DNA of 64,000 nt from Patescibacteria group bacterium (lineage in GTDB: Bacteria > Patescibacteriota > Patescibacteriia > UBA9934). Below, piece by piece: positions 10,517 to 57,374 of this stretch (the stretch's first letter is position 1; each line of letters starts with the position of its first letter). A program made the translations under genes and the position numbers. The stretch spans positions 43,290-107,289 of the forward strand of contig JBAZWW010000002.1 in the NCBI GenBank assembly GCA_041660165.1, given 5' to 3'. The notes beneath the pieces were generated by a model that saw only the letters and a program-made list of their open reading frames with translations, had not been told where the DNA came from and searched no databases.

Positions 10517-11653
10517 ATGCGAATAGGCATTGACGCACGATTTTTTGGTCCGCGGGTGGGGGGAGGCGGTTTAGGCCGTTATGTCTCTGAGTTGGTGAAC
10601 CATTTGCAGGAAATTGATCATGACAATGAGTACGTTATTTTTCTCAAAAAAGAAAATTTTCATGAGTTCGTGGTAACTGGCGGAAATTTTTCAAAAAAGA
10701 TGGTTGATGTGCCGTGGTACTCGCTGGCTGAGCAGACAATCATGCCGAGAGAAATTGCTCTCGCCAAAGTAGATTTCATGCACTATCCGCACTGGAATGT
10801 GCCGGTGTTTTCGCGCGTGCCGTTCATTGTGACGATTCATGATTTGATCTTACTTGAGGATCCAGCGTCCGCGCGTTCAACTACTCGTGGCGCGTTCGTG
10901 CATGGACTCAAACACGTCGGTTTTAGGATCGCGCTTGAGAGAGCCATTCATGGTTCTCGCCACATCATTGCCGTTTCCGAAGCCACCAAACGCTCCATCC
11001 TCAAACACTTTAAGGTGAAGCCGGCCAAGATTACTGTTATTCATAATGGAGTTTCTGAGCCAAAGACGGGGAAGGGCGTCTCACTCCGGGACCTTGGTGT
11101 TGTTCAGCCGTACTTCCTGTACGTGGGCAACATGTATCCGCACAAGAATCTTGATACGCTCGTTGAGGCCTTTATGGCGGTTCACGCTTCGCACCCCGAT
11201 GCTCAGCTGGTGATAGCCGGGAAGTATGATGAGTTCGGTAAGAAATTGTCACAAAAGACCGCCGAGCTCGGCCTGCCAAATGGTGCGGTGCGGTTTCTTA
11301 ACTTGCCCACGGATGAGGAGATCGGTGCGTTATACCGCAACGCCGTCATGCTTGCGTATCCGTCGAGAATCGAGGGTTTTGGCATCCCTCCTGTTGAGGC
11401 CTTGCTCGCCGGAACGCCCGTGATGGCCTCAAACACATCCTCAATGCCCGAGGTCTTGGGCGAGTTTGTGAAATACGTTGATCCTGACGATTCACAGGAC
11501 ATGGCGCGCATCATGGTGGATGCACTCGTCCACCAAGAAAAATGGGCTGGGTTGAAAACGCGCGGAATGGACTGGGCCAAGAGGTACAATTGGACTACCG
11601 CCTCCAGGCAAACGCTGGAAACATATTTGCTTCACGGCCCGCGCCGGAAATAA
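10517..11653 (+). CDS. glycosyltransferase family 4 (GT1 fold)
   Basis: MRIGIDARFF start, and a C-terminal EGFGIPPVEAL motif. Confidence 0.85.
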   Translation: MRIGIDARFFGPRVGGGGLGRYVSELVNHLQEIDHDNEYVIFLKKENFHEFVVTGGNFSKKMVDVPWYSLAEQTIMPREIALAKVDFMHYPHWNVPVFSRVPFIVTIHDLILLEDPASARSTTRGAFVHGLKHVGFRIALERAIHGSRHIIAVSEATKRSILKHFKVKPAKITVIHNGVSEPKTGKGVSLRDLGVVQPYFLYVGNMYPHKNLDTLVEAFMAVHASHPDAQLVIAGKYDEFGKKLSQKTAELGLPNGAVRFLNLPTDEEIGALYRNAVMLAYPSRIEGFGIPPVEALLAGTPVMASNTSSMPEVLGEFVKYVDPDDSQDMARIMVDALVHQEKWAGLKTRGMDWAKRYNWTTASRQTLETYLLHGPRRK

Positions 11654-14079
11654 TTGTGGAAAAAGAGGAAAACAAAAATGGCAAAAAGGTTATTCGGATC
11701 AAAAGAGGGGGAACACCCGTCTCTCCATTTATTGTTCGTCTTTCACATCCCGGCCAAGCACTTGAGAACGCGCGCGATCTGATTGCTGATCTGGCCGCCA
11801 GTTTTGTGATTGACGGTGATGATGAAGCGGGTGAGGCTGATCTGGTGGAAACAAGGTCTGCTGACGGAGAATGCATTATTGCCTTTGATGAGTTCAGAGA
11901 ACAATTGCTGGAAGACCGGCCAGTTTCCGCCCCCGAATCCACCCTGGCCCTAACCTTGGCTTCTCCTAGGATGGGAGGGGAATTCGCAAAATTTAAGGCT
12001 CTCGAAAAGTTCGACCTTCCAGATGAGCCCATTTTCTCTATTGTTCAAATAGCTCCGGTTGAAATTGATGTTGTAGAGCTCTTTGCGGATGATGGCCCTA
12101 CGGCGCTGGCTAAGAAGATCGTTGATCTCTTTTCTTGGAAGCGCGGACTGGCATCATTCGTGCTGGTCGCGTTTGTGCTCGCGGCCCCTTTGAATGCCGT
12201 GCAAGTCTTTGCCCACGCTCGCGGAACGGCAGACACGGTGCAGAATCAGGGGAAGTCCGCGCTTGAAGCATTTTTTAGAGGCGCCGGTTCATTGTCTGAC
12301 AAGAATTTCGATTCTGCGCAAAAAGATTTCTCAAGGGCCGCGGAGGATTTTGCTGACGCACAGTCTTCGCTTAACGATATGCACACGGCCGTAACGGCTG
12401 TGTTGACCGTCATCCCGCAGACTGACAAGACCATGAGTTCGGTCCGGGGGCTGATGAACGCCGGGGAGGAACTTTCCCAGACGGCCGAGATCCTTGCGCT
12501 GGCCGCGGATGACGTTGGCAGTCTCAAGTCCGCCACGCTGGTTGAAAAAATCGGCTTGCTGTCTACGTACGTTGAAAAAGCCGAACCGCATGTTGAATCA
12601 GCTGAGGCATCAATGAAGCGCGTTGATCCCAGTGTTGTCCCTGCCGAGTATTTCACCCGCGTTAAGGAACTCCAGGATAATTTGCCAAAACTGCACTCTG
12701 CCATGGGCGAGTTTGTCGAGTTTACCGACGCGCTGACCACGGTGCTTGGCGGTCATGGCCAGGTCAGATACCTGGCGGCCTTCCAAAACAACACTGAACT
12801 CCGGCCGACTGGAGGATTCGTGGGAAGTTTTGCCGAACTCGATGTGAAAGACGGTGCGATTGAAAAAATGAACGTGCCAACCGGCGGTTCGTACTCCGGA
12901 GAGGGCCAGCTGACGCAATATGTGGCCGCGCCGGGTCCGCTCCAGCTCTTAAAAGCCCGCTGGGAATTCCAGGACGCTAACTGGTTTCCGGATTTTCCTT
13001 CCTCGGCTAAGAAAATGCTCTGGTTCCACGGTTATGCCGGCGGACCCACTATGGACGGCGTGATCGCGGTCAATGCCACGTTCGTGCAGAAACTCCTTGG
13101 CGTTCTTGGGCCGGTTGAAATGCCGGCGTACGGCAGGACCATCACCGCCGACAATTTCCTGCTTGAAACGCAGAAGATCGTAGAACTGGAATACGATAAA
13201 ACGGAGAACGCGCCCAAGGCATTCATTGGGGATCTCGCTCCAGTATTACTCGATCGTCTAACAAGGGCTGATTATCCCACGCTTCTCAAAGTTCTCGATA
13301 TTTTGGGCAAGGGGATGGAGCAGAAGGACATCCAGGTCTACTTCCAGGACAACGCGCTTGAAGCGTCCATGGAAAGCCTTGGCTGGTCAGGTTCGGTCAA
13401 GTCAACAAGCGGGGACTATCTCATGGTAGTGGATACAAACCTTGGCGGAGGAAAAACGGACGGCGTAATTGATCAGGATGTAAACGTTGATGTGTCAATT
13501 GATGAGGCTGGCGCAGTGATTGATACCGTAACCATCAAAAAGACTCACCGCGGGATGAAGAATGAGCTGTTCCGCGGGTTGAATAACGTTGATTACCTTC
13601 GAGTGTATGTTCCGGAAGGGGCCGAGCTTCTTACGGCTTCAGGCTTCACTCCGCCCAGCGACTCGCTGTACAAGACGGCGAATGTCCCGCTTGGCATTGA
13701 TGAAGATTTGGCTGTGTCCATGAAAAATATCCGCAAGGACGCTTCGGGAACTGATATTTGGGAGGAAGACGGCAAGACGGTTTTTGGCAACTGGATGCAA
13801 ACCGCGCCGGGAACAGAGGAGACCGTGACATTTACCTACAAGTTGCCTTTGAAGGTTGAGCTGAATACTGAGCATTCGTTTTTATCGAGTGCTTCGCCGA
13901 TCTCGTATTCGCTTTTTCTTCAGAAACAGTCAGGCGTGGAAAAGCGCATCACGAATGTTCGCGTGAATCTCCCGCATGAGGTTCCAGTGTTGTGGACTTC
14001 AGCAGATGCTCAGGCAAATGTGACAGGGTACGCGACGAATGACCATGACGCTTTCTTTGGTTGGCTTTTTGCGCGCTAG
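11542..14079 (+). CDS. large membrane-anchored extracytoplasmic protein, hypothetical
   Basis: One TM segment (LASFVLVAFVLAAPL) then about 650 aa of extracellular-type sequence. The start is uncertain: ATG 11542 overlaps the upstream gene by 112 nt, and GTG 11656 or ATG 11968 are alternatives. Confidence 0.55.
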   Translation: MGWVENARNGLGQEVQLDYRLQANAGNIFASRPAPEIIVEKEENKNGKKVIRIKRGGTPVSPFIVRLSHPGQALENARDLIADLAASFVIDGDDEAGEADLVETRSADGECIIAFDEFREQLLEDRPVSAPESTLALTLASPRMGGEFAKFKALEKFDLPDEPIFSIVQIAPVEIDVVELFADDGPTALAKKIVDLFSWKRGLASFVLVAFVLAAPLNAVQVFAHARGTADTVQNQGKSALEAFFRGAGSLSDKNFDSAQKDFSRAAEDFADAQSSLNDMHTAVTAVLTVIPQTDKTMSSVRGLMNAGEELSQTAEILALAADDVGSLKSATLVEKIGLLSTYVEKAEPHVESAEASMKRVDPSVVPAEYFTRVKELQDNLPKLHSAMGEFVEFTDALTTVLGGHGQVRYLAAFQNNTELRPTGGFVGSFAELDVKDGAIEKMNVPTGGSYSGEGQLTQYVAAPGPLQLLKARWEFQDANWFPDFPSSAKKMLWFHGYAGGPTMDGVIAVNATFVQKLLGVLGPVEMPAYGRTITADNFLLETQKIVELEYDKTENAPKAFIGDLAPVLLDRLTRADYPTLLKVLDILGKGMEQKDIQVYFQDNALEASMESLGWSGSVKSTSGDYLMVVDTNLGGGKTDGVIDQDVNVDVSIDEAGAVIDTVTIKKTHRGMKNELFRGLNNVDYLRVYVPEGAELLTASGFTPPSDSLYKTANVPLGIDEDLAVSMKNIRKDASGTDIWEEDGKTVFGNWMQTAPGTEETVTFTYKLPLKVELNTEHSFLSSASPISYSLFLQKQSGVEKRITNVRVNLPHEVPVLWTSADAQANVTGYATNDHDAFFGWLFAR

Positions 14080-15970: not shown

Positions 15971-15982
15971 GCCGTGTATCCC

Positions 15983-16006
15983 ATCCTGAGCGACAGCGAA
16001 GGATCT
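15983..16006 (+). repeat. palindromic repeat family copy (CATCCTGAGCGACAGCGAAGGATC)
   Basis: Same core, 13 nt after the surface-protein stop. Confidence 0.7.
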
Positions 16007-16049
16007 AGAGATGGTAGGTATTTTAGATATTGTGTAGGATAAATGTCAT

Positions 16050-16703
16050 ATGAAAACCGTCCTCATCACCGGTATTAGTCGTGGAATTGGCCGGGCGCTT
16101 GCTGAGAAGTTTCTTGAAAATGGTGATGTTGTGATTGGCACGTCAAGAACTGGTTCCGTTGATTTTGTTCACGAGAACCTGACAGTTATAGGGCTGGAGC
16201 TGACAGCTCCTGCCAGTATTGAGGCATGCGCAAAGAGCGTCCAGACGCTTGGGAAGAAGATTGATATTTTTATAAACAATGCCGGAGTGTGGGATGAGGG
16301 TGATGATACGGAAGAGGTGAATATTCCGGCCCTCCGCCGAACACTTGAGGTGAATCTTATTGCGCCCATTGCCTTCACTGAACAAATTCTTCAGCTCGTG
16401 AACCGCCGTGGACACATTGTGAATATTTCTTCCCGCCGGGGTTCGCTGGCTAATTTGAATGATACAAAATATCCGTCGTACAGTATTTCAAAAACGGCTT
16501 TGAACATGTTTACTCGGCTCCTGGCCGTTCGACTTGAGGGAAGAATCACCGTTTCTTCTGTTCATCCCGGCTCAGTCAAAACTGACATGAACCCCGACGG
16601 GAAGATATCTGCTCAAGAATCCGCTGACGATATCTTCAAACTCGCAAATTCAGATGTTGAGACCGGGCAATTCTGGTTTAAGGGCGAGAAGATGGCGTGG
16701 TAG
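16050..16703 (+). CDS. SDR-family short-chain dehydrogenase/reductase
   Basis: TGISRGIGRALA Rossmann motif, and a YxxxK catalytic pair (YPSYSISK). Confidence 0.85.
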   Translation: MKTVLITGISRGIGRALAEKFLENGDVVIGTSRTGSVDFVHENLTVIGLELTAPASIEACAKSVQTLGKKIDIFINNAGVWDEGDDTEEVNIPALRRTLEVNLIAPIAFTEQILQLVNRRGHIVNISSRRGSLANLNDTKYPSYSISKTALNMFTRLLAVRLEGRITVSSVHPGSVKTDMNPDGKISAQESADDIFKLANSDVETGQFWFKGEKMAW

Positions 16704-16705
16704 AT

Positions 16706-17530
16706 TTATTTCAACAATTTTCTAACTGTATTATTTGTTATCAACGACTTCATTTGGGTGATAGCAATTTCGTTTAGTTTGAGTAGCCGATCGCTTTGTG
16801 TTATCCCCATCTTAATAAACTCGGCATTGAAGCTTTCGAGGTTCGCTAGACAGACTAGTTGATGGACATCGGCATAATCCCGAATGTTACCGTCTTTGCC
16901 TCTGTGTTTTGCCCGCCATTGTTGAGCGGTCATGCCAAAGAGCGACATGTTGAGCACATCAGCCTCAGTTGCGTACGCTTTAGTTGCCTCGGCGAGAGAT
17001 AGCTTTTGCGGAATGACGACATTCTCTTTTATAGAATCTGTGTGAATCTTGTAGTTAATTTTCGTGAGCATGCGTTTGGCATCCCAGCCTACTGCCAAGC
17101 GTTCGTTTTCTTCTACCTTGAGTCTTTGGAACTCCTTTATGAGATAGAGCTTGAATTCCGGAGAAATCCAGGTGGCGAATTCAAAGGCGATGTCCTTGTG
17201 GGCAAATGTTCCTCCGCCATAACGGCCAGATTTGGTCAAAATACCGGTTGCATTGACTGCTTCAATCCAGCGCTTGGGCGTCAGAGAAAAGCTATTCGCG
17301 CCAGCACTGTTTTTAAACCCCTCGAATTCGAGGGGTTTAAAAGAGGGATTATTAATTTGTTCCCAAATTCCCAAAAATTCAATAGTATCCATTGTTCGCA
17401 TCCAATTCTGAATGAGATGATCCGTTCGATCCGTGTCCGTGTATCTCGCGATATCGGTTAACGAAATATAATCGGTCTCATTTTGGTTGAAAGTATGTAT
17501 TTGCAGTCCCAGGGTAATGATTTTCTTCAT
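16706..17530 (-). CDS. KilA-N domain protein
   Basis: MKKIITLGLQIHTFNQNETDYISLTDIARY... matches the widespread KilA-N domain family. The start is set at the internal MKK. Confidence 0.65.
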   Translation of the reverse strand: MKKIITLGLQIHTFNQNETDYISLTDIARYTDTDRTDHLIQNWMRTMDTIEFLGIWEQINNPSFKPLEFEGFKNSAGANSFSLTPKRWIEAVNATGILTKSGRYGGGTFAHKDIAFEFATWISPEFKLYLIKEFQRLKVEENERLAVGWDAKRMLTKINYKIHTDSIKENVVIPQKLSLAEATKAYATEADVLNMSLFGMTAQQWRAKHRGKDGNIRDYADVHQLVCLANLESFNAEFIKMGITQSDRLLKLNEIAITQMKSLITNNTVRKLLK

Positions 17531-17592
17531 ATCAATGGATGATGCATCAAGCCTCTTTAATGTTACTGAATTCCGTGACATTAGAATGTAGA

Positions 17593-18840
17593 TCATTTAT
17601 TCTCCGCCAGGGTCTTTTCTAGAGTCTGAATGAATTCCTCAATCGGCACTCCCTTGCCCCCGTTGTCTCGCTTGGCATCGAATACGGTTTCAAAGAGAAT
17701 CGACTCGAGTGTCTCCAGCGTCTTCCTGGCCGTTTCTTTCCACGTAAACATTTTTGCCTGTTCAAGCCCCTTCTTGATCAGTGTCGTCCGAAGTTTCTCA
17801 CCATCAGTTTCATGAAAGAGCTGGAGGAGCGCCTGAGTAATATCCTCGACGTTCAACGGATCGACGAGGATGGCAGAGTCGGCGGTTATTTCGGCCAGCG
17901 AGCTGGTAAACGAGGTGATGACGGGCACGCCGGAGGCCATGGCCTCAAGGACTGGCAAGCCGAAGCCCTCGTAGAATGAAGGGAAGAGAAAGGCCGAGGC
18001 ACCTCGGAACACGGCCGGCTTGTGCTTCTCAGGAACGTAGCCAAGGAACCGAATGTCAGCGCCGAACATGGCGCGTTCTTGGGCCTCGAGTACTCTGCGA
18101 TGATGGAAACCATTACCGCCCATGATAACGAGCGGGAGGGGAACACCACCCTTTGACCTGAATGAGTCGTAGGCCTCAATTACGCCCTCTATATTTTTAC
18201 GAGGTTCAAGCGTGGCGGCACAGAGCAAGTACTCGCGGTTAAGGTCATAAGTCGCTCGAAAGGTTTTGTCAGACGGCTGTTCGCGCGGGACAAATTTGGT
18301 TTGATCTACGCCAAGATGCGTGACGGCGATCTTTTCATTGGGGATTTTGTAGTAACCGTGAACGTCTGAGGCAGTTGCCTCGGATACGGCCAGAATCCCT
18401 TGGGCATTCGTGCAAAGCACGTCGATTTTTTGCAACTTTCGAGCTAGTCGGTCTTTTCTAGAAAAAAACTTTGGGAAAATAAGAAAACTGACATCATGCA
18501 CCGTGAATAGGTACGGAAGATTCGTCTTGATGACGTTGTGGTTTGGAAAGATCCAAACGTCGGGCGTTTTCGGCAGAAAGGACTCAAGTGTAAACGGCGA
18601 AAAGGGGAGGAGCAAGAGGAGGGAAAGAAGACGATTAGGAATTCGGACGTCAACCAAGTGGATATTCCGGCGTCTGATTTGCGGTACTCGGCGAAGAGAT
18701 ACCTCGGTTCCGCTCACAAAAACAAAAAAATCATCTTCCGGGCTTTCATCGGCCAGGTTCGTAATAAGCTCAAGGGTGTAATGGCCAACGCCTGTTAACC
18801 GCTCATTCGTGAGCGCCCGGGCGTCGATTGCGATTTTCAT
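17593..18840 (-). CDS. glycosyltransferase family 4
   Basis: MKIAIDARAL start, EGFGLPVLEAMASGVPVI motif. Confidence 0.85.
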   Translation of the reverse strand: MKIAIDARALTNERLTGVGHYTLELITNLADESPEDDFFVFVSGTEVSLRRVPQIRRRNIHLVDVRIPNRLLSLLLLLPFSPFTLESFLPKTPDVWIFPNHNVIKTNLPYLFTVHDVSFLIFPKFFSRKDRLARKLQKIDVLCTNAQGILAVSEATASDVHGYYKIPNEKIAVTHLGVDQTKFVPREQPSDKTFRATYDLNREYLLCAATLEPRKNIEGVIEAYDSFRSKGGVPLPLVIMGGNGFHHRRVLEAQERAMFGADIRFLGYVPEKHKPAVFRGASAFLFPSFYEGFGLPVLEAMASGVPVITSFTSSLAEITADSAILVDPLNVEDITQALLQLFHETDGEKLRTTLIKKGLEQAKMFTWKETARKTLETLESILFETVFDAKRDNGGKGVPIEEFIQTLEKTLAENK

Positions 18841-21362: not shown

Positions 21363-22043
21363 CTACTTTATCCTCCACATATCGTCCCTTGGATCAATGC
21401 GGAGTTCCTTAGGATCAGTTTTGGTCGAGTATTTGACGGGTGCGTCCTTGATGATTGCCAGGGGCATTCGTTCTTTCCCCTCGCCCATGACCAGCACCGC
21501 AGAAGACGCGAGCGTATCTGCCACGTTCGTCTGCGTCATCTTGAGCGCTCGGCCAAAAATGTCCGGCGTCCCGCGGTAATCTCGCAGGCCAAGGAAGCCA
21601 GCATAACCAATTGCCACGCCCGTTACGCCAGCTCGCAGAGGATAGAGCCGGCTGTCCGTGATCAGCACTCCGCACTTCTTGATCTTGTGCTTCTTGAGAA
21701 AGTGTTGGTGGATTTTTCGAGCTACCTCATACGGCTCCTTCGGCCAGAGAACAAGCTTGCCATCAGCATTGGATTCATCTACTCCCGCATTCGGGCCCCA
21801 GTGCCCATCTTTGAGTGTCAGATAGCAGTATTTTGTTTTGATCGCCTTTTCACTCTCTTGTCGAATAACTCGCGTCTTTCTCCCTTGAGTGTTCTCGACA
21901 ACCCGTCCCTGTGCGAGCGCAACAATTTTTGAGGTGATGACGAGTATTTCGCCGTTCTCAACCTTCGGCACAAAGGTGTCGATATAGTTTTCGAGTGATT
22001 GATGCGGTTTGAAAATGGTGCAGTGAATGGAGGTAATCATCAT
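21363..22043 (-). CDS. CofE-like gamma-glutamyl ligase family protein (F420-0:gamma-glutamyl ligase-like)
   Basis: GEILVITSKIVALAQGR and GPNAGVDESNADG resemble the CofE SKVVS / ANAGIDxSN motifs. Confidence 0.55.
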   Translation of the reverse strand: MMITSIHCTIFKPHQSLENYIDTFVPKVENGEILVITSKIVALAQGRVVENTQGRKTRVIRQESEKAIKTKYCYLTLKDGHWGPNAGVDESNADGKLVLWPKEPYEVARKIHQHFLKKHKIKKCGVLITDSRLYPLRAGVTGVAIGYAGFLGLRDYRGTPDIFGRALKMTQTNVADTLASSAVLVMGEGKERMPLAIIKDAPVKYSTKTDPKELRIDPRDDMWRIK

Positions 22044-22106
22044 AGGAGGTTTGGCGAGGAAGGTGTTTCTCCCTCCTCGCCTGGCGGTTGTTAGAGATTG
22101 TCGAGC

Positions 22107-22826
22107 TTATCCCGGCCAGCCGGCCAGAATAAAGGCGAGATGATTGGCTACTTCAGCCATCAGCGGTTTCTGGCGTATATGCGTGTTGAATTCCAGCTGG
22201 ATGGCTTCGAGTCCATGTTGGCCAGATTTTTCGGCAACTCGGCGCGTGATCCACCCGCCACGGTAACGCGCGCTGATGTTCTGCGTTTCGTCGGGCGAGA
22301 ACACCGCCTTGTACGGTCGGCCGAGCACTTCACTTCGGACGTTTCCGAGGTGCCTGGCGATTGTTTTATCCAGGCCGAGCCTGCAGGTTTTATGGCGGTC
22401 GGTTCCGAGCACTATGTCGTATTTTTCCGGGCCTGGGGACGTAGCGAATCCGTGAACGTCAATGAGGAGACACTCGCCGAATTCCGTCAGGCTGAGTTCG
22501 ATCGCTAGATCGAGCGCCCTGTGGAACATCTCGTATTCTTTCACGAATCCTTTCGCGAAAGGTTCGTTGTCCGGCTCTCGGTTCACATCCACATGTGAAC
22601 GGTGAAGGCCGAAGGAGACGGTGGAGGCGTAGACGCCGCGTGTTCCGAGTTCACGCTCAAGATGTCGGGCCAGGATCAGCGTTTCTTCGTCTCGCATTTC
22701 ACCCCAGTTCCTGGCAATCCAGAGCTTGGCCTCCTCACGGATGGCGGCCTCGGGAAAAGCGATTTTGCCGTCGTGGGGCACGGAGAGGATGATGGGACCG
22801 TTACCATAGCTCACCCGGGTATACAT
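22107..22826 (-). CDS. N-formylglutamate amidohydrolase family protein
   Basis: LSVPHDG ... HS ... VHGF motifs. AAGGAG lies 7 nt upstream of the ATG at 22826. Confidence 0.55.
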   Translation of the reverse strand: MYTRVSYGNGPIILSVPHDGKIAFPEAAIREEAKLWIARNWGEMRDEETLILARHLERELGTRGVYASTVSFGLHRSHVDVNREPDNEPFAKGFVKEYEMFHRALDLAIELSLTEFGECLLIDVHGFATSPGPEKYDIVLGTDRHKTCRLGLDKTIARHLGNVRSEVLGRPYKAVFSPDETQNISARYRGGWITRRVAEKSGQHGLEAIQLEFNTHIRQKPLMAEVANHLAFILAGWPG

Positions 22827-23002: not shown

Positions 23003-23557
23003 ACCGCCCTTGCGGACGGTGTTTTGTGCGTGGGAAACCTATAAGCCGAATTCTGTCGGTTGGATCAGCGCGTTCGGTTTGATCCAGCCGTGACGACCAT
23101 CTCTCTAGCCCCATGATTGCTCATGGGATCGTGCGAGCTACCTAATTTGCTCTTGCACCAAGGCGGGTTTGCCGCACCCGTATGTCGCCATACTGGTGAG
23201 ACGAGTAGTCATTGCTGACACCTCGTCACTTTTCACTGTACTCCACCCGTCACTCACCGAAGTGAGGGGTGTGGGTGGGTAGCATAGTCTCTGTTGCTTC
23301 CTGTTTCATCTTTCGACGAACAGTGAACTGAGAAATTCTTGCGTTTTTCTCAGACTTTCCCTGGGCTTCCTCACGCCTGTGGGGGACAGCGCGAACGCCG
23401 GTATCCAGTCCCTCACCTGCGTAACTTCTTCCCGGTTGCCGTTAGCAACGCCTCTTTCCAATGTACATTGCTGTACACGGGGTGTTCGGACTTTCCTCCC
23501 CTAACGTAGTTCGGCTTAGCCGGACGAAGTGGGGCGGTCATCTAGTTTCCCAAGCAC
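23003..23557 (-). ncRNA. rnpB: RNase P RNA (bacterial type A-like)
   Basis: On the minus strand, GGAGGAAAGUCCGAAC (P4 5' strand) lies 60 nt from a predicted P1. ACAGAAUUCGGCUUAUAGG (P4 3' strand) is present. P1 pairs as GUGCUUGGGAAAC / GUUUCCCACGCAC. A 3' GNRA-capped hairpin plus U-run terminator follows. No ORF in the region. Confidence 0.7.
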
Positions 23558-23662
23558 GGGAATATTAGCAAAAATAATGATTATTGTAAAGTGAAACCCC
23601 GCCGTCCAGCTTGCGCAGGACTGGCGGGGCACGACGGTCACAACCGTCCGGTGGGATCAACT

Positions 23663-24352
23663 CTAGGCGGGCTCGAAGGGGGTTGCGAGTTCGAGCAGGA
23701 AGTTGTAGAGGTCCACCGTGGAAACGGTGGTTTGCCACCGGCGGTTTTCCTGCAGTTCCAACTGCTTTCGCCGAATGTCAGTCTCGCTGAAGACCTTGGC
23801 CGTGATGGCCTTAGTCGTCCAGAAGTCCAGGATGAGGCCGAGGGTGTTTACGGCCGTTACCGTGGACAGGCTCGGGAGCTCGGTCGTGATGACGGCCCGG
23901 TAATGGTCTGCCCGAGTATTCCATTCACCGCCTTCGAACGGCCTCAACATGGCCTTGACCTTGTCTGGGGTGAGATCACGAATGAGCGTTCCCCCGCGAT
24001 GTCTGAGATCCATCAGGCCATGGAGGAGGCTGAGTCCTGCGGCATCGGCCCGGACGTAGTCTTCAGCCCACGGCTGACGGCGGAAGCATCGATTGAGAAG
24101 GCTCGGCGCCTGTTTCTCAAGGAGGCTGAAGATGAGATCCTGCTCCGGCCGTGTTTTGGCATGTTTCCCGCGCCGGAGAAGCTCTGCCTCTTCGGGGGTC
24201 AGCGGGCGGACGAATTCCTTCTCTTCTTCATCCGGCTCGAAACGTAGTCGGCCCCACGGCAAAGTGCTGGGGGCACAGACGAGCTGAGCGGGAGCGGGCG
24301 AACTAATCTTTGGCGGTTGCGTCGGCCTATTCGGCGTTCGAGCATTGGACAT
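23663..24352 (-). CDS. hypothetical protein (GC-rich island)
   Basis: 229-aa ORF, more protein-like than the overlapping plus-strand ORF. No recognisable domain. Confidence 0.35.
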   Translation of the reverse strand: MSNARTPNRPTQPPKISSPAPAQLVCAPSTLPWGRLRFEPDEEEKEFVRPLTPEEAELLRRGKHAKTRPEQDLIFSLLEKQAPSLLNRCFRRQPWAEDYVRADAAGLSLLHGLMDLRHRGGTLIRDLTPDKVKAMLRPFEGGEWNTRADHYRAVITTELPSLSTVTAVNTLGLILDFWTTKAITAKVFSETDIRRKQLELQENRRWQTTVSTVDLYNFLLELATPFEPA

Positions 24353-24520
24353 GGCGTCCCTCGTTTAGGTGGGCGGTTGGGGTTTTGCCGTGTTCGGGGA
24401 GAACACAGCTGGGCCAGCGTAGAGAAAGGCTGACATTTCGTCAATAAAATTGGCTAATAAAAGGAAGACGCCCATCGTTCGGGGGAACGACAGGCGTTAG
24501 CAAAGATCGGGATCTACCGG

Positions 24521-25051
24521 CTAGTTCTTGGGCAGAGCGCCCATGAGAACGGCCAGGACGGCGGTCTTTTCGGTGAGCTTCTGGAGCTCATGCGTGGGCG
24601 CCAGGAGAACCTTGGTCGCGTAGGCCCTGAGGCTCGAAACACCGATCCCCATTCTACGGTTGACGACTCCATCCGCGATGTCGTCGAGGAACCGGGAGAT
24701 GAGCCCGCGACGCGAAGCGTCGTTGCTCGCGAGGAGATTCAGGATCCCCTCCAGGGAATCGAGACTGATGGCGCGATTCCAACGCTCCTTGAGGAGTCCG
24801 TTGATGATCCAGCAGACCCGTTTCACGTCATCGTCCGTACAGACCTGGTACTGGCACCCCCGTCTGACGCCCAGGGCGCCGGCGTGGAGGCAGTGGAGGA
24901 CCAGGAGGTCGGTTGCATCCGTCGCGGTGCTGATCGCGGCCACGAGGTCTTCCGTGACCGAGTCGGGGGCGACTCGGACGACGTGACGAATCCTGTGGGC
25001 GGGAACGGCCGTGGGGGGTGCTTTTTGTCGTGGCAACTCTGCGGTAGTCAT
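24521..25051 (-). CDS. hypothetical protein (GC-rich island)
   Basis: 176-aa ORF, no recognisable domain. Confidence 0.35.
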   Translation of the reverse strand: MTTAELPRQKAPPTAVPAHRIRHVVRVAPDSVTEDLVAAISTATDATDLLVLHCLHAGALGVRRGCQYQVCTDDDVKRVCWIINGLLKERWNRAISLDSLEGILNLLASNDASRRGLISRFLDDIADGVVNRRMGIGVSSLRAYATKVLLAPTHELQKLTEKTAVLAVLMGALPKN

Positions 25052-25227
25052 GGACTATCCATTGGTGGGCGAACTGTGGCGGTTTTGCGTCCGGGAGGAC
25101 GCTGTATCCAGGAAGGATACGCGGAGGAGTGTACTCCAAAAAATGAAAATAGTCAATAAAAAGTGGACAAAAGCAAACGCCCGCCAGACCCTGTGGGTAT
25201 GGCGGGCGTGCAGACGCCTGAAAGGAG

Positions 25228-25827
25228 CTAGTCCTTCCTGGGCGTGAACGAGAGGTTGAGCCGTTCGAGGACGTAGGCCGGGTCCGTCCGATCGGCGAGC
25301 TTCGCACTGTCCATCTCCGTGGAGATGAGGTACGCGTCGCCCTCCGTGAGGTAGATCTTGTTCGCCATGAAGGCGCAGTCCGGCTTCCTGTCAGCCAGAC
25401 GCTTCATGGTTTCAGCCAGGTCCCTGAGGAAGACCGGTACCACAGCCCGGCGGGCGTGGTCCGTCTTCAGGTCGTGGAGGAAGCTGACGAGCTCTTCGGG
25501 GGTGGCGTCTCCGTCTTTCCTGCGGAGGTTGAGCTCCTCGATCTGCTTGAGCTCGTTCAGCACGGCCCGGGCGTTGGTCTTCTTGCCCTTGCCCATCACG
25601 CCGTTCTCCCGCATGACGGGGATGCACTTGAGGCGGGCCAGGATGATCACGGCGAGCATGAGCTCGCTCAGATCGTCCATGGTGTTGAGCGAGTTCTTGA
25701 GCTCTACGCCAATCGGCACGCTGGCCTTGGGCTTCCGGTTTTGATCAGTGCGCTGGCCCTGGGTTCGGGGAGAGCCCTTGGCCGCGGTTGGCGGGAGATG
25801 TTCAGAGGTAGTCGACGACAGGTGCAT
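25228..25827 (-). CDS. hypothetical protein (GC-rich island)
   Basis: The start is set downstream of a hairpin at 25930..25956. The longer N-terminal extension is unlikely. Confidence 0.3.
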   Translation of the reverse strand: MHLSSTTSEHLPPTAAKGSPRTQGQRTDQNRKPKASVPIGVELKNSLNTMDDLSELMLAVIILARLKCIPVMRENGVMGKGKKTNARAVLNELKQIEELNLRRKDGDATPEELVSFLHDLKTDHARRAVVPVFLRDLAETMKRLADRKPDCAFMANKIYLTEGDAYLISTEMDSAKLADRTDPAYVLERLNLSFTPRKD

Positions 25828-25929
25828 GGAGACCCCAATGCAGTGACGGTTATTTGCCCCGAATGGAGCCGGAAGACGATACTGCCCGGCGGTCAAAATG
25901 TCAATCATTAGCCATAAAACAACGAACGC

Positions 25930-25956
25930 CACCTTCCGGTTAGGAAAGGTGGCGCA
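25930..25956 (-). terminator. hairpin, possible terminator
   Basis: CCACCTTCC-n-GGAAAGGTGG stem between two minus-strand island genes. Confidence 0.35.
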
Positions 25957-25978
25957 CGGTTTGACGAACGGGTTCCGT

Positions 25979-26164
25979 CTAGGTTTCGTCCGCGTGCATG
26001 TGCCCGAGGACGAGCACGCAGGCGCCGCCAGCAACGAAGCCGATGACGACTGACACTTCGTGGCTGACGAGCGAGTTCGTGACCGTGAGTGCGACCACGA
26101 AGGTTCCTGTCACCGCGATTTCTCCTAGGAGGTAGTCTGGAACCATTTTTTTCAAGAACTCCTG
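25979..26164 (-). CDS. small membrane protein
   Basis: MQEFLKKMVPDYLLGEIAVTGTFVVALTV...VVIGFVAGGACVLVL, two hydrophobic helices, 61 aa. Confidence 0.35.
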   Translation of the reverse strand, partial: QEFLKKMVPDYLLGEIAVTGTFVVALTVTNSLVSHEVSVVIGFVAGGACVLVLGHMHADET

Positions 26165-26189
26165 CATGTTCGTGTCTCCCGAATCGAGT

Positions 26190-26378
26190 TTAATAGTCGA
26201 GTTTGGTTTTGAGGATGATCGACGCGAGCGCGACGAGCATACCGGGTCCGAGGAAGAGCGTCTGCAGGTCGATGTCGACCTTCCCGACTGCATGAGCCAG
26301 GAAGAGGATCGAGAGACCGGCCATGGCGCTACCGCCAAGAACCTTGAAAATCAACACCAACTCTTGTGTAACGGTCAT
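26190..26378 (-). CDS. small membrane protein
   Basis: 62 aa, two hydrophobic helices (AMAGLSILFLAHAV / LFLGPGMLVALASIIL). Confidence 0.4.
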   Translation of the reverse strand: MTVTQELVLIFKVLGGSAMAGLSILFLAHAVGKVDIDLQTLFLGPGMLVALASIILKTKLDY

Positions 26379-26504
26379 TTGAAACCTCGGTGGGATAGGG
26401 TGGACACTGCGTGATGCAGAGCCCGGAAGGTGTACCTAGGTACGCTAGGCACAATTCAAATAATAGCACTTTCTGCCTTGTTTGTCAAGCAAAAAGTGCA
26501 AAAT

Positions 26505-27488
26505 CTAGGCTAAGGTTAGGCCCATCTTTTGTTTGACTTCAGCAATTTTTGCGCCGGCGATTGCTCCTGCTCTGGCACTCCCCTCGGCAATGACTTTTTC
26601 AAGTTCGTCGCGGTGCTTGAGGTATCCAGCAATCTCGGCCTGGAGCGGTGTAAGATGAACAATCAGGGCCTCAGCCACGTCATCCTTAAGGTCCTTCATG
26701 CCTTTGTCTACGTACTCGTCTGCAACTGCAAAGACCGAGCGTCCCTCAATGAGCGAGAGGATCGAGAGCAAATTAGCAACCCCGGGACGAGCCTCGTCAT
26801 ACCGCACCGTTGGTTCCGAGTCCGTGACCGCTGACCGAATTTTCTTGCGGATGACATCGGCTTCATCCATGAGCGAGATGTAGTTTTTGGGGGTAGGGGA
26901 GCTTTTGCTCATTTTTTTCTCTGGATTGTCGAGCCCCAGGAGCTTGGCTCCGTGCTCGGCGATCATTGGTTTAGGAATCACGAACGTCTCACCGAAGTCG
27001 CGGTTAAAGCGCTCTGCCAAATCTCGAGCTAGTTCGATGTGTTGCCGTTGATCCTCGCCTACAGGCACGCCAACCGCGTCATAAAGCAAAATATCAGCCG
27101 CTTGTAGAACGGGATAGGTGAAAAGTCCTACACTCACATTCTGTCCCTTGCTTTTTGCTTTGTCTTTGAATTGAATCATTCTTTCAACCTCGCCCATGCG
27201 AGCAACACATTGCATGATCCAGCCAAGCTCCGCATGCGCCGAGATTCTCGACTGTTGGACGATCGTTGCGCGTTTAGGGTCTATGCCCGCAGCCAAATAC
27301 GCCGCCGTGGCAAAGGCGATGTTATTCGACAGCTCGATAGGGTTTTGCGGAACTGTAATAGCGTGCAAATCAACGATCAGCATCGTGAGGTCATGTTCTT
27401 TCTGCAGTTCGACCGCCGGCTTCAGTGCGCCAAAGTAATTGCCGATGTGCAGAATGTTCGTTGGCTGGATGCCAGATAGAATACGCAT
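26505..27488 (-). CDS. trpS: tryptophanyl-tRNA synthetase
   Basis: TNILHIGNYFGA (HIGH-class), KMSKS present. Confidence 0.9.
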   Translation of the reverse strand: MRILSGIQPTNILHIGNYFGALKPAVELQKEHDLTMLIVDLHAITVPQNPIELSNNIAFATAAYLAAGIDPKRATIVQQSRISAHAELGWIMQCVARMGEVERMIQFKDKAKSKGQNVSVGLFTYPVLQAADILLYDAVGVPVGEDQRQHIELARDLAERFNRDFGETFVIPKPMIAEHGAKLLGLDNPEKKMSKSSPTPKNYISLMDEADVIRKKIRSAVTDSEPTVRYDEARPGVANLLSILSLIEGRSVFAVADEYVDKGMKDLKDDVAEALIVHLTPLQAEIAGYLKHRDELEKVIAEGSARAGAIAGAKIAEVKQKMGLTLA

Positions 27489-27566
27489 ATGCGACAGATT
27501 GTACACAGAATGACGAATAAACAAAAAGCCCCTTGTGAGGAGCCTTCTGTTCTCTGCCTTGAATTC

Positions 27567-42420: not shown

Positions 42421-45081
42421 ATGCAAGAAATGCCAAAAGCGTACGAGCCTCAGGGAAAAGAAGACGCCCTTTATGAGCTGTGGCTCAAGAGCGAGTACTT
42501 TAACCCCGATAAACTGCCCAATCTCGATCAACGGACCGAGACTTTTTCAATTGTCCTCCCACCCCCGAATGTTACGGGCACGCTCCACATGGGCCATGCG
42601 ACCATGCTCGCTATTGAGGATGCGATGGTGCGTTACGCTCGGTTAAGCGGGAAGCGGACGCTTTGGATTCCGGGAACTGACCATGCCGCGATCGCGACGC
42701 AATCGAAGGTTGAAGGCATGATTTTCAAAGAAGAAAAGAAAACTCGTTATGACCTTGGCCGAGAGGTATTCCTCGATCGCGTTCGCGCGTTCGCGCAGGA
42801 GAGTCACGATACTATCGTTAATCAAGCGAAGAAGATGGGCGCCTCGGTGGATTGGTCACGTGAGGCATATACGCTCGACAAAACCAGAAATAAGGCCGTC
42901 AACGTTGCGTTCAAACAAATGTATGATGACGGTTTGGTTTACCGCGGTTATCGCGTTATCAATTGGGATCCGATTGGTCAGACCACTATTGCTGATGACG
43001 AAATAGTTTACAAAGAAACGACAGCAATGTTGTACACGTTCAAATATTCGAAAGATTTTCCGATTTCAATTTCGACAACTCGACCAGAAACTAAAGTTGG
43101 CGACACAGCAGTGGCGGTACATCCAACAGATAAGCGTTACAAGAAATTTATCGGACAAGAGTTCGCCGTCGAGTTCGCTGGCAGTAACTTGAAGATCAAA
43201 ATTGTCGGCGATGAATCGGTTGATCCAGAATTCGGAACTGGCGCGCTTGGCGTCACTCCAGCGCATAGTTCGATCGACTTTGATATTTCTAAGCGCCATG
43301 AGTTGCCGATGATTCAAGTTATTGGCGAAGATGGCAAGATGATGAAGACGGCGGGGGAGCTGGTAGCTGGCTTGAGTACAAAAAGTGCTCGGGAGAAAGT
43401 TGTGGAATGGTTGCGCGAAAATTCTTTGCTTGAAAGCGAAGAAGAATCAAAACAAAACTTGTCTACAGCCGAGCGAACTGGCGGAATCATTGAGCCTTTG
43501 CCCAAGTTGCAATGGTTCATTGGCGTGAACACAGAATTTGTTCGCGACGGAAAAAGGGTGACGCTGAAGGGACTGATGCAAGAGGCGGTGCGTTCAAAAG
43601 CGATTGACATTCTTCCCGACAGATTCGAAAAGACATATTTCCATTGGATTGATAATCTCCGCGACTGGAATATCAGCCGTCAGATTTGGTTTGGCCACAG
43701 AGTTCCCGTTTGGTATCGCGAGGTCCAGTCCCCGAGCGTAGGCGAGGGGCCTAGAGGTGGGGATTTGGTGGTCGGCGAAAGGCCAGATGGAGATGGTTGG
43801 ACCCAGGACGAGGATACGCTCGACACTTGGTTCTCTTCTGGTCTTTGGACGTTTTCGACGCTCGGTTGGCCCGATAAGACGAAGGACCTCGAGTTCTATC
43901 ACCCAACGAGCGTGCTTGAAACCGGTTACGACATCATCTTCTTCTGGGTAGCGCGCATGATTCTTATGTCTACGTATCTGCTCGGCGAAGTGCCGTTCAA
44001 GACGGTGTACCTTCACGGGCTCGTCCGTGACGAGCAAGGCCGAAAGATGAGTAAGTCGCTCGGCAACATTATCAATCCGCTCGACATGATTGAGAAGTTC
44101 GGAGCCGATGCAACTCGTCTCTCGTTGGTTCTCGGCAACACGCCGGGGAACGATCTGAAGCTGTCCGAGGAGAAGATTGCCGGCTTCCGAAATTTCACGA
44201 ACAAGTTGTGGAATATCTCACGTTTTATCCTTTCAAAATCACAATTTGTACAAATTGTACAAAATCCAATTCCTAAAACTCTCGCCGACAGATGGATCCT
44301 CGGTCGATTCTCTGAAGTAGTCGAAAAAGTAACGAAGCTTCACGAGGCTTACGATCTCTCCCTCGCCGGTGAGATCTTGCGCGAGTTTACATGGAGCGAA
44401 TTCGCCGACTGGTACCTCGAGATCGCGAAAATTGAGGGCGACAAAGATGAAATCCTGCTCTTTATCCTTGAACGCTTGCTCATCCTCTGGCACCCGTTCA
44501 TGCCATTCGTGACCGAAGAGATTTACAAGAATTTTGATAAAGGCCTCATCATGGTGGCCAAGTGGCCGAGCGATGTGAATTATGCGCTCGCCGATGATGA
44601 TAAGAAAACCATGACCAGCCTGCAGGAAATTGTTGGCGCTATCCGCAATGTTCGTTCCGAACGCAAACTCGATACTAAGAAAGAACTTGGCGTGGCCATT
44701 CTCTCTGGCGGAAAGGGGCTGGTGAGCGAGGGGATGATCGAAGGAGTGAAACCGCTGTTTCCGATTATTGAGAAACTCGGTAGAACATTACCGATTAAAA
44801 CTGAAGACCAGGAGGGGACAGTCAAGGTGATCGCTGGCGGATTCACCGTGGCCATTTCGCTTGAAGGCGTCGTTGATGTCGCCAAGGAGCGCGCTCGGTT
44901 AGAAAAAGAACTTGATCAAACAAAGACGTACGTGGCGAGTATGCTTGTGAAGCTGTCCAATAAGGACTTTGTGGCTCGCGCCCCAGAAAATGTTATTGAT
45001 CTTGAGCGTGACCGCCTGGCCCAGGCCGAAAAGAAGGCTGAGGCGCTTGAAGCGGAACTTAAAGCGCTACTTGAGGCATAA
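42421..45081 (+). CDS. valS: valyl-tRNA synthetase
   Basis: PPNVTGTLHMGHA, KMSKSLGN, C-terminal coiled-coil. The region where a Cys knuckle is normally found is instead repeat-derived (see findings). Confidence 0.95.
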   Translation: MQEMPKAYEPQGKEDALYELWLKSEYFNPDKLPNLDQRTETFSIVLPPPNVTGTLHMGHATMLAIEDAMVRYARLSGKRTLWIPGTDHAAIATQSKVEGMIFKEEKKTRYDLGREVFLDRVRAFAQESHDTIVNQAKKMGASVDWSREAYTLDKTRNKAVNVAFKQMYDDGLVYRGYRVINWDPIGQTTIADDEIVYKETTAMLYTFKYSKDFPISISTTRPETKVGDTAVAVHPTDKRYKKFIGQEFAVEFAGSNLKIKIVGDESVDPEFGTGALGVTPAHSSIDFDISKRHELPMIQVIGEDGKMMKTAGELVAGLSTKSAREKVVEWLRENSLLESEEESKQNLSTAERTGGIIEPLPKLQWFIGVNTEFVRDGKRVTLKGLMQEAVRSKAIDILPDRFEKTYFHWIDNLRDWNISRQIWFGHRVPVWYREVQSPSVGEGPRGGDLVVGERPDGDGWTQDEDTLDTWFSSGLWTFSTLGWPDKTKDLEFYHPTSVLETGYDIIFFWVARMILMSTYLLGEVPFKTVYLHGLVRDEQGRKMSKSLGNIINPLDMIEKFGADATRLSLVLGNTPGNDLKLSEEKIAGFRNFTNKLWNISRFILSKSQFVQIVQNPIPKTLADRWILGRFSEVVEKVTKLHEAYDLSLAGEILREFTWSEFADWYLEIAKIEGDKDEILLFILERLLILWHPFMPFVTEEIYKNFDKGLIMVAKWPSDVNYALADDDKKTMTSLQEIVGAIRNVRSERKLDTKKELGVAILSGGKGLVSEGMIEGVKPLFPIIEKLGRTLPIKTEDQEGTVKVIAGGFTVAISLEGVVDVAKERARLEKELDQTKTYVASMLVKLSNKDFVARAPENVIDLERDRLAQAEKKAEALEAELKALLEA
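43728..43767 (+). repeat. palindromic repeat family copy inside the valS CDS
   Basis: GTCCCCGAGCGTAGGCGAGGGGCCTAGAGGTGGGGATTTGG aligns over about 40 nt with the copy at 3420..3460, including the AGAGGTGGG tail. Confidence 0.55.
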
Positions 45082-54107: not shown

Positions 54108-54191
54108 AGTAGGAAAAGGGTAGCACAGCCCCATAAAAAACAAAACGACCCCACTTCGTCCAGCTGAGCTGGACTACGTTGGGGGTCGCTT

Positions 54192-54277
54192 TGGTGCGCG
54201 AGAGAGGACTCGAACCTCCACACCATTGCTGGCACCAGCCCCTCAAGCTGGCGTGTCTACCATTTCACCACTCGCGC
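54192..54277 (-). tRNA. tRNA-Leu (anticodon GAG)
   Basis: Acceptor GCGCGAG/CTCGCGC, 3-bp D-stem, anticodon loop UUGAGGG, long variable arm, encoded CCA. Confidence 0.85.
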
Positions 54278-57247: not shown

Positions 57248-57270
57248 ATCCTTCGCCTACGCTCAGGATC
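57247..57270 (-). repeat. palindromic repeat family copy (reverse orientation)
   Basis: GATCCTTCGCCTACGCTCAGGATC, immediately after the stop. Confidence 0.7.
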
Positions 57271-57374
57271 TGATGCACATGAATCCGATCCTAGACTTGC
57301 ACGATTTGGTTCTTATGGTATCCTCTCTGCATAAGAACTCGGCCAGTGGCCGGGTTCGTTGCTTAAATAGAGAT

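Follow-up and report, generated by a model that had tools for sequence, protein, structure and literature searches.

Five predicted co-oriented genes, all of them orphans, make up a GC-rich block that separates trpS from rnpB, the gene for RNase P RNA, within a 64,000-nt stretch of contig JBAZWW010000002.1 of a Patescibacteria group bacterium (hereafter the window). Comparison with relatives revealed that the block is a positional constant of its clade, Candidatus Uhrbacteria, and not an insertion peculiar to this genome. The reading that we consider reasonably probable is a hypervariable locus, confined to the clade and passed on vertically, that is held in a fixed slot between trpS and rnpB, with its GC richness at third codon positions (GC3) kept in place. 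A textbook "alien DNA" signature, consisting of a GC jump, oligonucleotide deviation, orphan genes and small membrane proteins, can thus be stably inherited as part of a native locus. Composition-based calls of horizontal gene transfer (HGT) in genomes of the candidate phyla radiation (CPR) would misfile this block.

The trpS-rnpB slot in the window and in relatives

The GC content of positions 23600-26420 was 0.598 against a mean of 0.517 for the whole stretch, the highest value among all 2.8-kb windows and about 4 standard deviations (sd) above their mean. In the sliding-window profile, GC rose from ~0.52 to 0.58-0.63 across ~23.5-26.2 kb and dropped back before trpS. The block was also the strongest outlier in dinucleotide signature (delta* = 100 versus a mean of 48, sd 15; rank 1 of 306), and the tetranucleotide correlation was lowest in its region (0.66 versus 0.82). 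These values confirmed the GC-rich block of about 2.8 kb and the compositional discontinuity that a preliminary description of the window had noted by eye. Its placement between rnpB and trpS was confirmed as well, with an RF00010 match at 23026-23553 and trpS at 26505-27524.

With trpS as a handle, 20-kb loci were taken from species-representative genomes (loci of relatives are denoted by L numbers). The closest TrpS relatives were metagenome-assembled genomes (MAGs) named Candidatus Uhrbacteria. In L004 and L005, whose TrpS is 86-88% identical, trpS was followed by two small membrane-protein open reading frames (ORFs), an ORF of 184-218 aa, an ORF of 154-177 aa and then rnpB, and the GC of this stretch was 0.58-0.62 versus a background of 0.47-0.50. 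When TrpS identity was 61-63% (L006 and L008-L012), a GC-rich co-oriented block of 1.8-2.9 kb was again located between trpS and rnpB. The GC offset of the slot was +0.06 to +0.14 in L004-L006 and L008-L012, and L007 had only a short block with a weak offset (+0.02). Altogether, a GC-rich co-oriented block was present in nearly all recovered Uhrbacteria relatives, down to a TrpS identity of 55%, which makes its position a constant of the clade.

Metagenomes extended this picture. When JGI metagenomes were scanned for a degenerate rnpB motif, 18 more contigs came up, and these repeated the slot pattern wherever the sequence was long enough. The order trpS, GC-rich block, rnpB was found in the metagenome contigs L087, L102 and L104 and in part in L089, L093 and L100, and GC-rich DNA was located upstream of rnpB in L095, L098, L101, L103 and L084-L086. 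In nine genomes, the GC of the block ranged from 0.57 to 0.63 and that of the host from 0.42 to 0.53, with a mean offset of +0.104 and a correlation (r) of 0.74. Of 25 further trpS loci (CPR and assorted), 23 had no comparable GC rise after the gene. A smaller version of the block, followed by the same Bac_transf gene, was found in L042, a Parcubacteria MAG, and a non-coding GC-rich kilobase followed trpS in L062.

The layout of the slot was shared too, with membrane proteins first and then soluble, mostly basic helical orphan proteins, and its gene content changed between sub-clades. The pI of the soluble block proteins was above 8.5 in 20 of 25 cases; many had N-terminal tails rich in Pro, Arg and Lys, and they had no predicted transmembrane segment and no N-terminal signal peptide apparent by eye. 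A distant sub-clade carried larger membrane proteins with 3-4 transmembrane segments ending in Gly/His-rich tails (e.g. GGGGGHH), together with a better conserved soluble family. The Gly/His-rich tails of the slot membrane protein in L006, L008-L012, L087 and L104 include GGGGGGHGAKPKAGGHH, PSGGGGGHH and GGGGGKGGH. In L012, the slot membrane-protein gene was split into two ORFs.

The preliminary description had given three readings of the block: cargo gained horizontally, the remains of a prophage, or an accessory module particular to the lineage. Acquired cargo was not borne out, as almost every recovered Uhrbacteria relative had a GC-rich block in the slot. The accessory module stood as to lineage specificity, being clade-wide in position and architecture, and had to be amended in that the locus is hypervariable in sequence and gene content. 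Syntenic conservation with housekeeping annotations had been named as the sign against those readings; syntenic conservation was found, and housekeeping annotation was absent.

Genes, transcription units and mobility

The features of the block and its two anchors, in the direction of transcription, are as follows; promoters and terminators are predictions.

26505..27524, minus strand: trpS, conserved upstream anchor
26460..26488, minus strand: P1, TTGACA-17-TATTAT with TG extension, 11/12 matches, directly downstream of trpS, driving p62-p61
26190..26378, minus strand: p62, 62 aa, hairpin topology, GAGG Shine-Dalgarno upstream, GC3 0.73
25979..26164, minus strand: p61, 61 aa, two hydrophobic segments, GGAG Shine-Dalgarno upstream, GC3 0.76
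25926..25955, minus strand: T1, intrinsic terminator of the p62-p61 operon, 12-bp stem with 7 GC pairs, T-rich tail
25876..25904, minus strand: P2, TTGACA-17-TATCGT, for p199
25228..25827, minus strand: p199, 199 aa, basic (pI 9.05), most conserved block gene, GC3 0.875
25177..25209, minus strand: T2, terminator after p199, 15-nt arms, 93% complementary, then a T run
25128..25156, minus strand: P3, TTGACT-17-TACACT, for p176; promoter and leader 95-98% identical to L084
24521..25051, minus strand: p176, 176 aa, hypervariable core, distant paralogue of p199
24468..24497, minus strand: T3, terminator after p176, 13 pairs (7 GC), T-rich tail
24416..24444, minus strand: P4, putative weaker promoter TTGACG-17-TACGCT, for p229; seen by eye, below the scanner threshold
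23663..24352, minus strand: p229, 229 aa, hypervariable, Pro-rich N tail, predicted all-helical domain (moderate-confidence model)
23597..23629, minus strand: terminator-like GC hairpin after p229, CCCCGCC...GGCGGGG then TTTCACTTT; seen by eye, not reported by the scanner
23562..23590, minus strand: rnpB promoter TTTACA-17-TAATAT, opening the downstream anchor (23026..23590)
23026..23553, minus strand: rnpB, RNase P RNA gene, conserved downstream anchor (Rfam RF00010, 115.5 bits)

All five minus-strand ORFs named in the preliminary description were found and showed coding periodicity, with a GC3 of 0.71-0.88 versus a GC of 0.32-0.47 at second codon positions (GC2). Plus-strand ORFs of 218, 189 and 151 aa are present as well. 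They have the mirror codon-position GC profile, indicating that they are antisense shadows; the claim that the block contains only minus-strand ORFs therefore holds for the real genes and fails literally. Further support came from L084, a contig with the same gene neighbourhood as the window and the one close partner available for comparison. The start and stop positions were kept in L084, and the p199 orthologue differed by an in-frame indel of 30 nt. Protein homology was detectable to an E value of 1e-24 where the DNA was only ~50% identical. From the excess of GC3 over GC2, the Shine-Dalgarno sites, the in-frame indel, a ratio of nonsynonymous to synonymous divergence (dN/dS) below 1 and the homology at ~50% DNA identity, we conclude that the block consists of five real minus-strand genes, encoding 62, 61, 199, 176 and 229 aa.

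Whether these ORFs could be chance frames was also considered; the GC-rich DNA would then be non-coding, such as a large structured RNA beside rnpB. GC-rich DNA gives long frames on both strands, as in the three plus-strand ORFs, structural RNAs are typically GC-rich, and gene callers differ over the block. However, the strong three-base periodicity is restricted to the minus-strand frames, p199 and p229 have a dN/dS below 1, no Rfam family was matched inside the block, and the in-frame indel, kept ends and protein homology would all be unexpected; we find this explanation scarcely credible. The gene calls were compared with those of an ENA metagenome contig matching the window (1 mismatch and 1 gap over 21 kb) and of Logan. 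Logan had the same five genes as here. The public ENA call picked the antisense ORF of 189 aa (24590-25159, plus) in place of p176 and had p199 N-extended to 226 aa (25228-25908, minus), so annotations of this region need care. p176 has an NCBI entry, as a hypothetical protein from a Patescibacteria MAG.

The first two genes match the adjacent pair of small two-helix membrane proteins proposed earlier. Two hydrophobic segments were found in p62 (at residues 6 and 38) as in p61, which starts 25 nt after p62 and is the second gene of the predicted p62-p61 operon. The p62 loop resembles, by eye, the first small ORF after trpS in L004 and L005, and these two ORFs are only 33% identical to each other. 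p199 begins with a disordered tail in which Pro, Arg and Lys abound and has a body modelled as all-helical; it is 34% identical to the 184-aa protein of L004. A Pro/Arg/Lys-rich tail at the N terminus and a predicted helical body are common to p199, p176 and p229.

In the region 22.8-26.7 kb, seven promoter-like sites were detected, all on the minus strand, versus 1.2 expected by chance. A P1 counterpart, likewise with 11/12 matches, follows trpS in L005 (11012-11040) and L010 (11045-11073). P2 lies inside a TTG-extended ORF of 268 aa, so the ATG start that gives 199 aa is taken as the real one. The internal hairpin that had been reported at 25930..25956 proved to be T1, with its 12-bp stem and T run, and the GC hairpin after p229 abuts the rnpB promoter. 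The regions upstream of p199, p176 and p229 align in a common layout of terminator, T run, ATTGAC, 17 nt and TAnnnT, and Shine-Dalgarno motifs precede p62, p61 and p229. These hairpins and promoter-like sites predict four transcription units (p62-p61, p199, p176 and p229), each with a sigma-70-like promoter and a hairpin terminator. Integron cassettes were ruled out, since the hairpins are ordinary T-tailed terminators, each gene would have its own promoter, and there is no integrase.

Searches of the five window proteins against Pfam, PHROGs, PADLOC and NCBIfam gave nothing significant, in agreement with the lack of recognisable domains noted earlier, and Pfam gave nothing significant for ten block proteins of distant relatives. 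No defence or toxin-antitoxin family was found for the block proteins in PADLOC, Pfam or NCBIfam. An exhaustive phmmer search of p229 against 1.84 billion proteins turned up no more than two further homologues, at 37% and 30% identity. Each sits directly upstream of rnpB on a contig with the same gene neighbourhood, and one of these contigs is L084. Word-indexed homology searches with p199 and p176 returned only these proteins themselves and the L084 orthologue of p176, and a scan of the JGI metagenomes with an alignment of p199 and its L004 relative gave no match. There was no match to p229, p176 or p199 in IMG/VR, to the block DNA, p229 or p199 in INPHARED phages by BLAST, or to the block DNA in PLSDB plasmids by BLAST. 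AlphaFold (AF2) models built from three-sequence alignments were all-helical, with a predicted local distance difference test (pLDDT) score of 66 and a predicted template-modelling score (pTM) of 0.66 for p229, and a pLDDT of 61 for p199. The fold search of BFVD gave no informative match (best E 0.28), and PDB profile searches with three block families gave nothing or a match to L22 at E 0.18, which was treated as chance.

A diversity-generating retroelement target was ruled out, since no template/variable repeat pair was found in the 64-kb window and no reverse transcriptase among the neighbouring genes; the best repeat pairing with the block in the window was 41 nt at 76% identity, which is chance level. 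An RNase P protein cofactor, suggested by adjacency to the unusually long rnpB, was considered, and no evidence was found behind it. A literature search found no earlier description of a trpS-rnpB locus.

These results bear on a recent horizontal acquisition, in which a genomic island or prophage remnant would have entered the slot between trpS and rnpB. In its favour, no other part of the window deviates as much in GC, dinucleotide signature or tetranucleotide use, the block genes are orphans throughout, and the small membrane-protein pair resembles a holin pair, in topology only. Nevertheless, we regard such an event as very improbable. The slot is GC-rich with co-oriented orphans in nearly all Uhrbacteria relatives recovered, and the p229 homologues occur solely beside rnpB in the same neighbourhood. 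Neither flanking direct repeats (att) at the block nor an integrase among the ORFs in or beside it was found, as had been noted before, and the block sits upstream of the rnpB 5' end, not at a 3' end (the typical site of island insertion is the 3' end of a tRNA or tmRNA gene). Matches in PHROGs, IMG/VR, INPHARED, PLSDB and BFVD were likewise missing, and with them the support for the proposed prophage remnant. Finally, the block promoters and terminators are conserved as much as, or more than, the flanking housekeeping genes.

Third-codon-position bias, divergence and competing explanations

The base frequencies at third codon positions were as follows.

Third-position C: block 0.47, host genes 0.30
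Third-position T: block 0.115, host genes 0.25
Third-position G: block 0.31, host genes 0.28
Third-position A: block 0.105, host genes 0.165

The GC enrichment sits almost wholly at third codon positions and comes back in nearly all relatives, and intergenic GC was 0.53 in the block versus 0.48 in the host. Among the non-block genes of the window, rplS had the highest C/(C+T) ratio, 0.76, compared with 0.73-0.91 in the block genes; in five relatives, the rplS ratio was 0.65-0.78, the highest or among the highest (this comparison with ribosomal proteins uses one gene, rplS, per genome). p199 had the highest GC3 in the block and the lowest synonymous divergence (dS; 0.23 versus 0.56-0.96 in the flanks). 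These codon-level data speak against foreign DNA that has yet to ameliorate, and also against simple local hypermutation. In L004, L005, L007, L010 and L012, the C/(C+T) ratio was ~0.5-0.65 in genes co-oriented with trpS and ~0.25-0.45 on the opposite strand, so codon-bias comparisons in those genomes must stay within one strand.

The divergence from L084 was as follows; it rests on a single close pair, and codon bias confounds dS, which is unreliable for genes with strong bias and high divergence.

Flanks (FGase, F420 ligase-like, Bac_transf, GT4): identity 81-94%, dN 0.04-0.11, dS 0.56-0.96, dN/dS 0.04-0.15
p199: identity 74%, dN 0.12, dS 0.23, dN/dS 0.52
p176: identity 32%, dN 0.71, dS 0.79, dN/dS 0.90
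p229: identity 36%, dN 0.57, dS 1.84, dN/dS 0.31

The protein-coding cores of the block diverge ~10 times faster than the flanking genes, and the regulatory parts and termini are kept. The 60-nt identity profile was a mosaic. Identity was 73-98% over promoters, leaders, terminators and the codons at either end of p176, with regulatory regions at 85-98%, and it was 40-55% in the p176 and p229 cores. Within p176, the first 5 and the last 15 residues are identical to those of its orthologue, and the core is ~45% identical at the DNA level. The p199 segment was unusually similar to L084, with intergenic DNA 95-98% identical and the low dS given above. In a second pair, L004 versus L005, the flanks were 72-90% identical and the block proteins 19-33%. 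By tblastn, p199 matched the 179-aa gene of L084, the orthologue of p176, with 29% identity (E 1.6e-6), indicating that p199 and p176 are tandem paralogues.

The third-position effect, the low rise of intergenic GC, the likeness to rplS and the high GC3 of p199 combined with its low dS suggest that the GC3 richness would be held in place by a selection-like force on synonymous sites rather than being a relic of foreign origin. Candidate forces are codon- or mRNA-level selection for high expression, or GC-biased gene conversion (gBGC) in a recombination-prone slot. GC-biased gene conversion has been reported to raise GC3 in recombining bacterial genes (PMC4450053). Diversification may proceed by rapid substitution together with homologous exchange that uses the conserved flanks and regulatory modules as anchors. 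Judging solely from promoter quality and codon bias, the products could be abundantly expressed. Their probable role is that of a rapidly evolving interface in interactions or conflict, made of membrane-embedded partners and basic cytoplasmic proteins that might bind nucleic acid. The basic Pro/Arg/Lys-rich tails may be functional (e.g. in nucleic-acid binding) or a by-product of GC pressure on weakly constrained sequence.

The same codon data could be explained by abundant, housekeeping-like proteins of the clade, namely basic nucleoid- or RNA-associated proteins with membrane partners, in which translational selection alone would produce the GC3 bias, and loose structural constraint instead of conflict would lie behind the rapid evolution. 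Near-consensus promoters and strong terminators for each unit, the barely raised intergenic GC and the top rank of rplS in third-position C/(C+T) among host genes, exceeded in the block, are all in line with this idea. So are the combination of highest GC3 and lowest dS in the most conserved block gene and the high pI of 20 of the 25 soluble proteins, many with Pro/Arg/Lys-rich tails. However, such proteins normally evolve slowly, whereas dN is here ~10 times that of the flanks; the preference for G over A is not seen in rplS, and the tails rich in Pro, Arg and Ala may just follow GC pressure on unconstrained sequence. We therefore give this explanation little credence.

A further alternative places the origin of the block outside the chromosome. 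An ancient mobile or viral module would have been captured in the Uhrbacteria ancestor, or cassettes would be swapped in from an unsampled extrachromosomal pool of ~60% GC, with the flanks, promoters and terminators as homology arms. This would account for the near-constant block GC over a wide range of host GC and for the mosaic between the window and L084, in which the p199 segment is closer than the flanks and the p176 and p229 cores are near-random in DNA. The block families of different sub-clades share no detectable homology, and many of the soluble proteins have basic N-terminal arms, which are common in nucleic-acid-packaging proteins. On the other hand, no viral, plasmid or out-of-slot copy was found, even by exhaustive search (CPR mobile elements are poorly sampled, so that missing matches are weak evidence here). 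Furthermore, block GC correlates with host GC (r 0.74), and the dS of p176 (0.79) is close to that of the flanks, which fits fast protein evolution in place over imported ancient alleles. Such an origin seems to us unlikely, at a level that still deserves weighing.

Several observations tell against vertical inheritance of one locus with GC3 kept in place. No link between the block families of different sub-clades was detected by hhalign, and calling them the same module across the clade rests on position, orientation, composition and architecture. The block GC stays at 0.57-0.63 over host GC of 0.42-0.53, which would also fit exchange with a shared external gene pool. Third positions in the block favour G over A, at 0.69-0.87 for four genes and 0.54 for p61, a preference without parallel in rplS (0.42-0.52). 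The GC3 rise of +0.2 to +0.3 is, by our own estimate, larger than published gBGC effects suggest. Our searches gave no informative sequence or fold match, the models being of low to moderate confidence (pLDDT 61-66), and the unreliability of dS mentioned above counts here too.

The inherited hypervariable locus that we favour resembles several known systems in part. Replacement flexible genomic islands have been described at fixed positions bounded by core genes in closely related strains, with unalignable genes for exposed cell structures (PMC4033161). Identity drops sharply at their boundaries, and homologous recombination in the flanks is suspected (PMC4033161). The block is similar in its fixed position between conserved core genes, its unalignable content and its similar layout. 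In the one close genome pair, for which codon bias confounds dS, identity drops steeply over the coding cores while p199 is unusually close to L084. As to exposed structures, the slot encodes membrane proteins, and glycosyltransferase genes are clustered after rnpB. It differs in spanning 1-3 kb, in containing only orphans, in being enriched in GC3, in extending across a family-level CPR clade and in keeping its internal regulatory modules conserved while the coding cores vary. Replacement islands are usually tens of kb long and typically not GC-enriched.

Codon-biased, highly expressed native genes are falsely flagged by composition-based HGT detectors; these are normally slow-evolving and universal, such as those for ribosomal proteins and EF-Tu. 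Like them, the block is a GC3 and codon outlier without foreign origin, and its preference for C-ending codons parallels that of rplS. Unlike them, the block orphans evolve ~10 times faster than their neighbours and prefer G-ending codons too. Conserved ends and hypervariable cores under diversifying selection are known from the flagellin gene fliC, the agr specificity groups and the target-recognition domains of hsdS. p176 is comparable, with its ends and flanking regulatory DNA kept and its core 32% identical beside neighbouring genes at ~90%; however, there is no homology or shared domain with these systems, and no partner enzyme, receptor or secretion signal was identified. The p62-p61 pair, with two adjacent genes of ~60 aa, two hydrophobic segments in each product and one strong predicted promoter, recalls holin/antiholin or two-peptide bacteriocin/immunity pairs. 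Unlike these, it has no PHROG or Pfam match, endolysin, transporter, leader peptide or phage neighbours, and distant relatives have the larger proteins with 3-4 transmembrane segments and Gly/His-rich tails at the same place.

It is also conceivable, with a slim chance in our judgement, that the slot represents an undescribed kind of locus, in which clade-wide, independently transcribed orphans have had their synonymous GC kept well above the genomic level over a very long span and their proteins diversify near-neutrally. It may then be an intense bacterial gBGC hotspot, or a new system for self/non-self or phage/host conflict. Whatever its kind, the block is a short, well-bounded, strongly promoted and fast-diversifying gene set that looks specific to one CPR lineage. 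It offers an entry point to what episymbiont-like bacteria diversify and against what, and to the choice between codon selection and biased gene conversion as the source of GC3.

Other features of the window and its relatives

The rnpB gene itself is long, with 528 nt versus the 367 positions of the model and a score of 115.5 bits versus a gathering score of 100. The rnpB genes of L004 (~13094-13564) and L005 (~13112-13561) were not reported at the gathering threshold. Lineage-specific rnpB insertions differ between close relatives, and L084 (~2190-3140) has an extra ~55 nt. A 37-nt hairpin in the 5' part of rnpB (23498-23534) is 86% complementary to a hairpin at 54149-54185, a terminator-like element just downstream of a minus-strand tRNA gene (54195-54277); the rnpB copy is present in L005 and absent from L004.

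Between rnpB and Bac_transf, the window carries a pair of genes with PF05013 (N-formylglutamate amidohydrolase-like) and PF01996 (F420-0:gamma-glutamyl ligase-like) domains (21363-22823, minus). The pair was found in the window and in L084, and L092 had a weaker FGase-like match. In L004, L005 and L086, rnpB is followed directly by Bac_transf.

In L062, the GC-rich kilobase (11475-12475) has a GC of 0.60 in a Patescibacteria contig of 0.40 GC and lies ~0.5 kb downstream of trpS, after an ORF of 141 aa. It showed no coding periodicity and no Rfam match at the gathering threshold; a structured RNA, either undescribed or highly divergent, may lie here.

Two stretches of low GC (0.44-0.47) were located at 16000-17600 and 3500-5100. 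The first contains a KilA-N domain protein (16706-17596) and the second a RhuM-family protein (4118-5110), adjoined by a SET-domain protein (3449-3988). Acquired DNA is more plausible for the KilA-N and RhuM stretches than for the GC-rich block. A palindromic repeat of ~40 nt (GATCCTGAGCGnAGGCGAAGGATC...) is dispersed in at least five copies (3420-3461, 6378-6412, 15974-16014, 43726-43761 and 57229-57280), mostly at gene ends, and looks like a repetitive extragenic palindromic (REP) or miniature inverted-repeat transposable element (MITE)-type element. Direct repeats of ~80 nt at 6290-6367 and 7289-7371 flank an ORF at 6323-7285.

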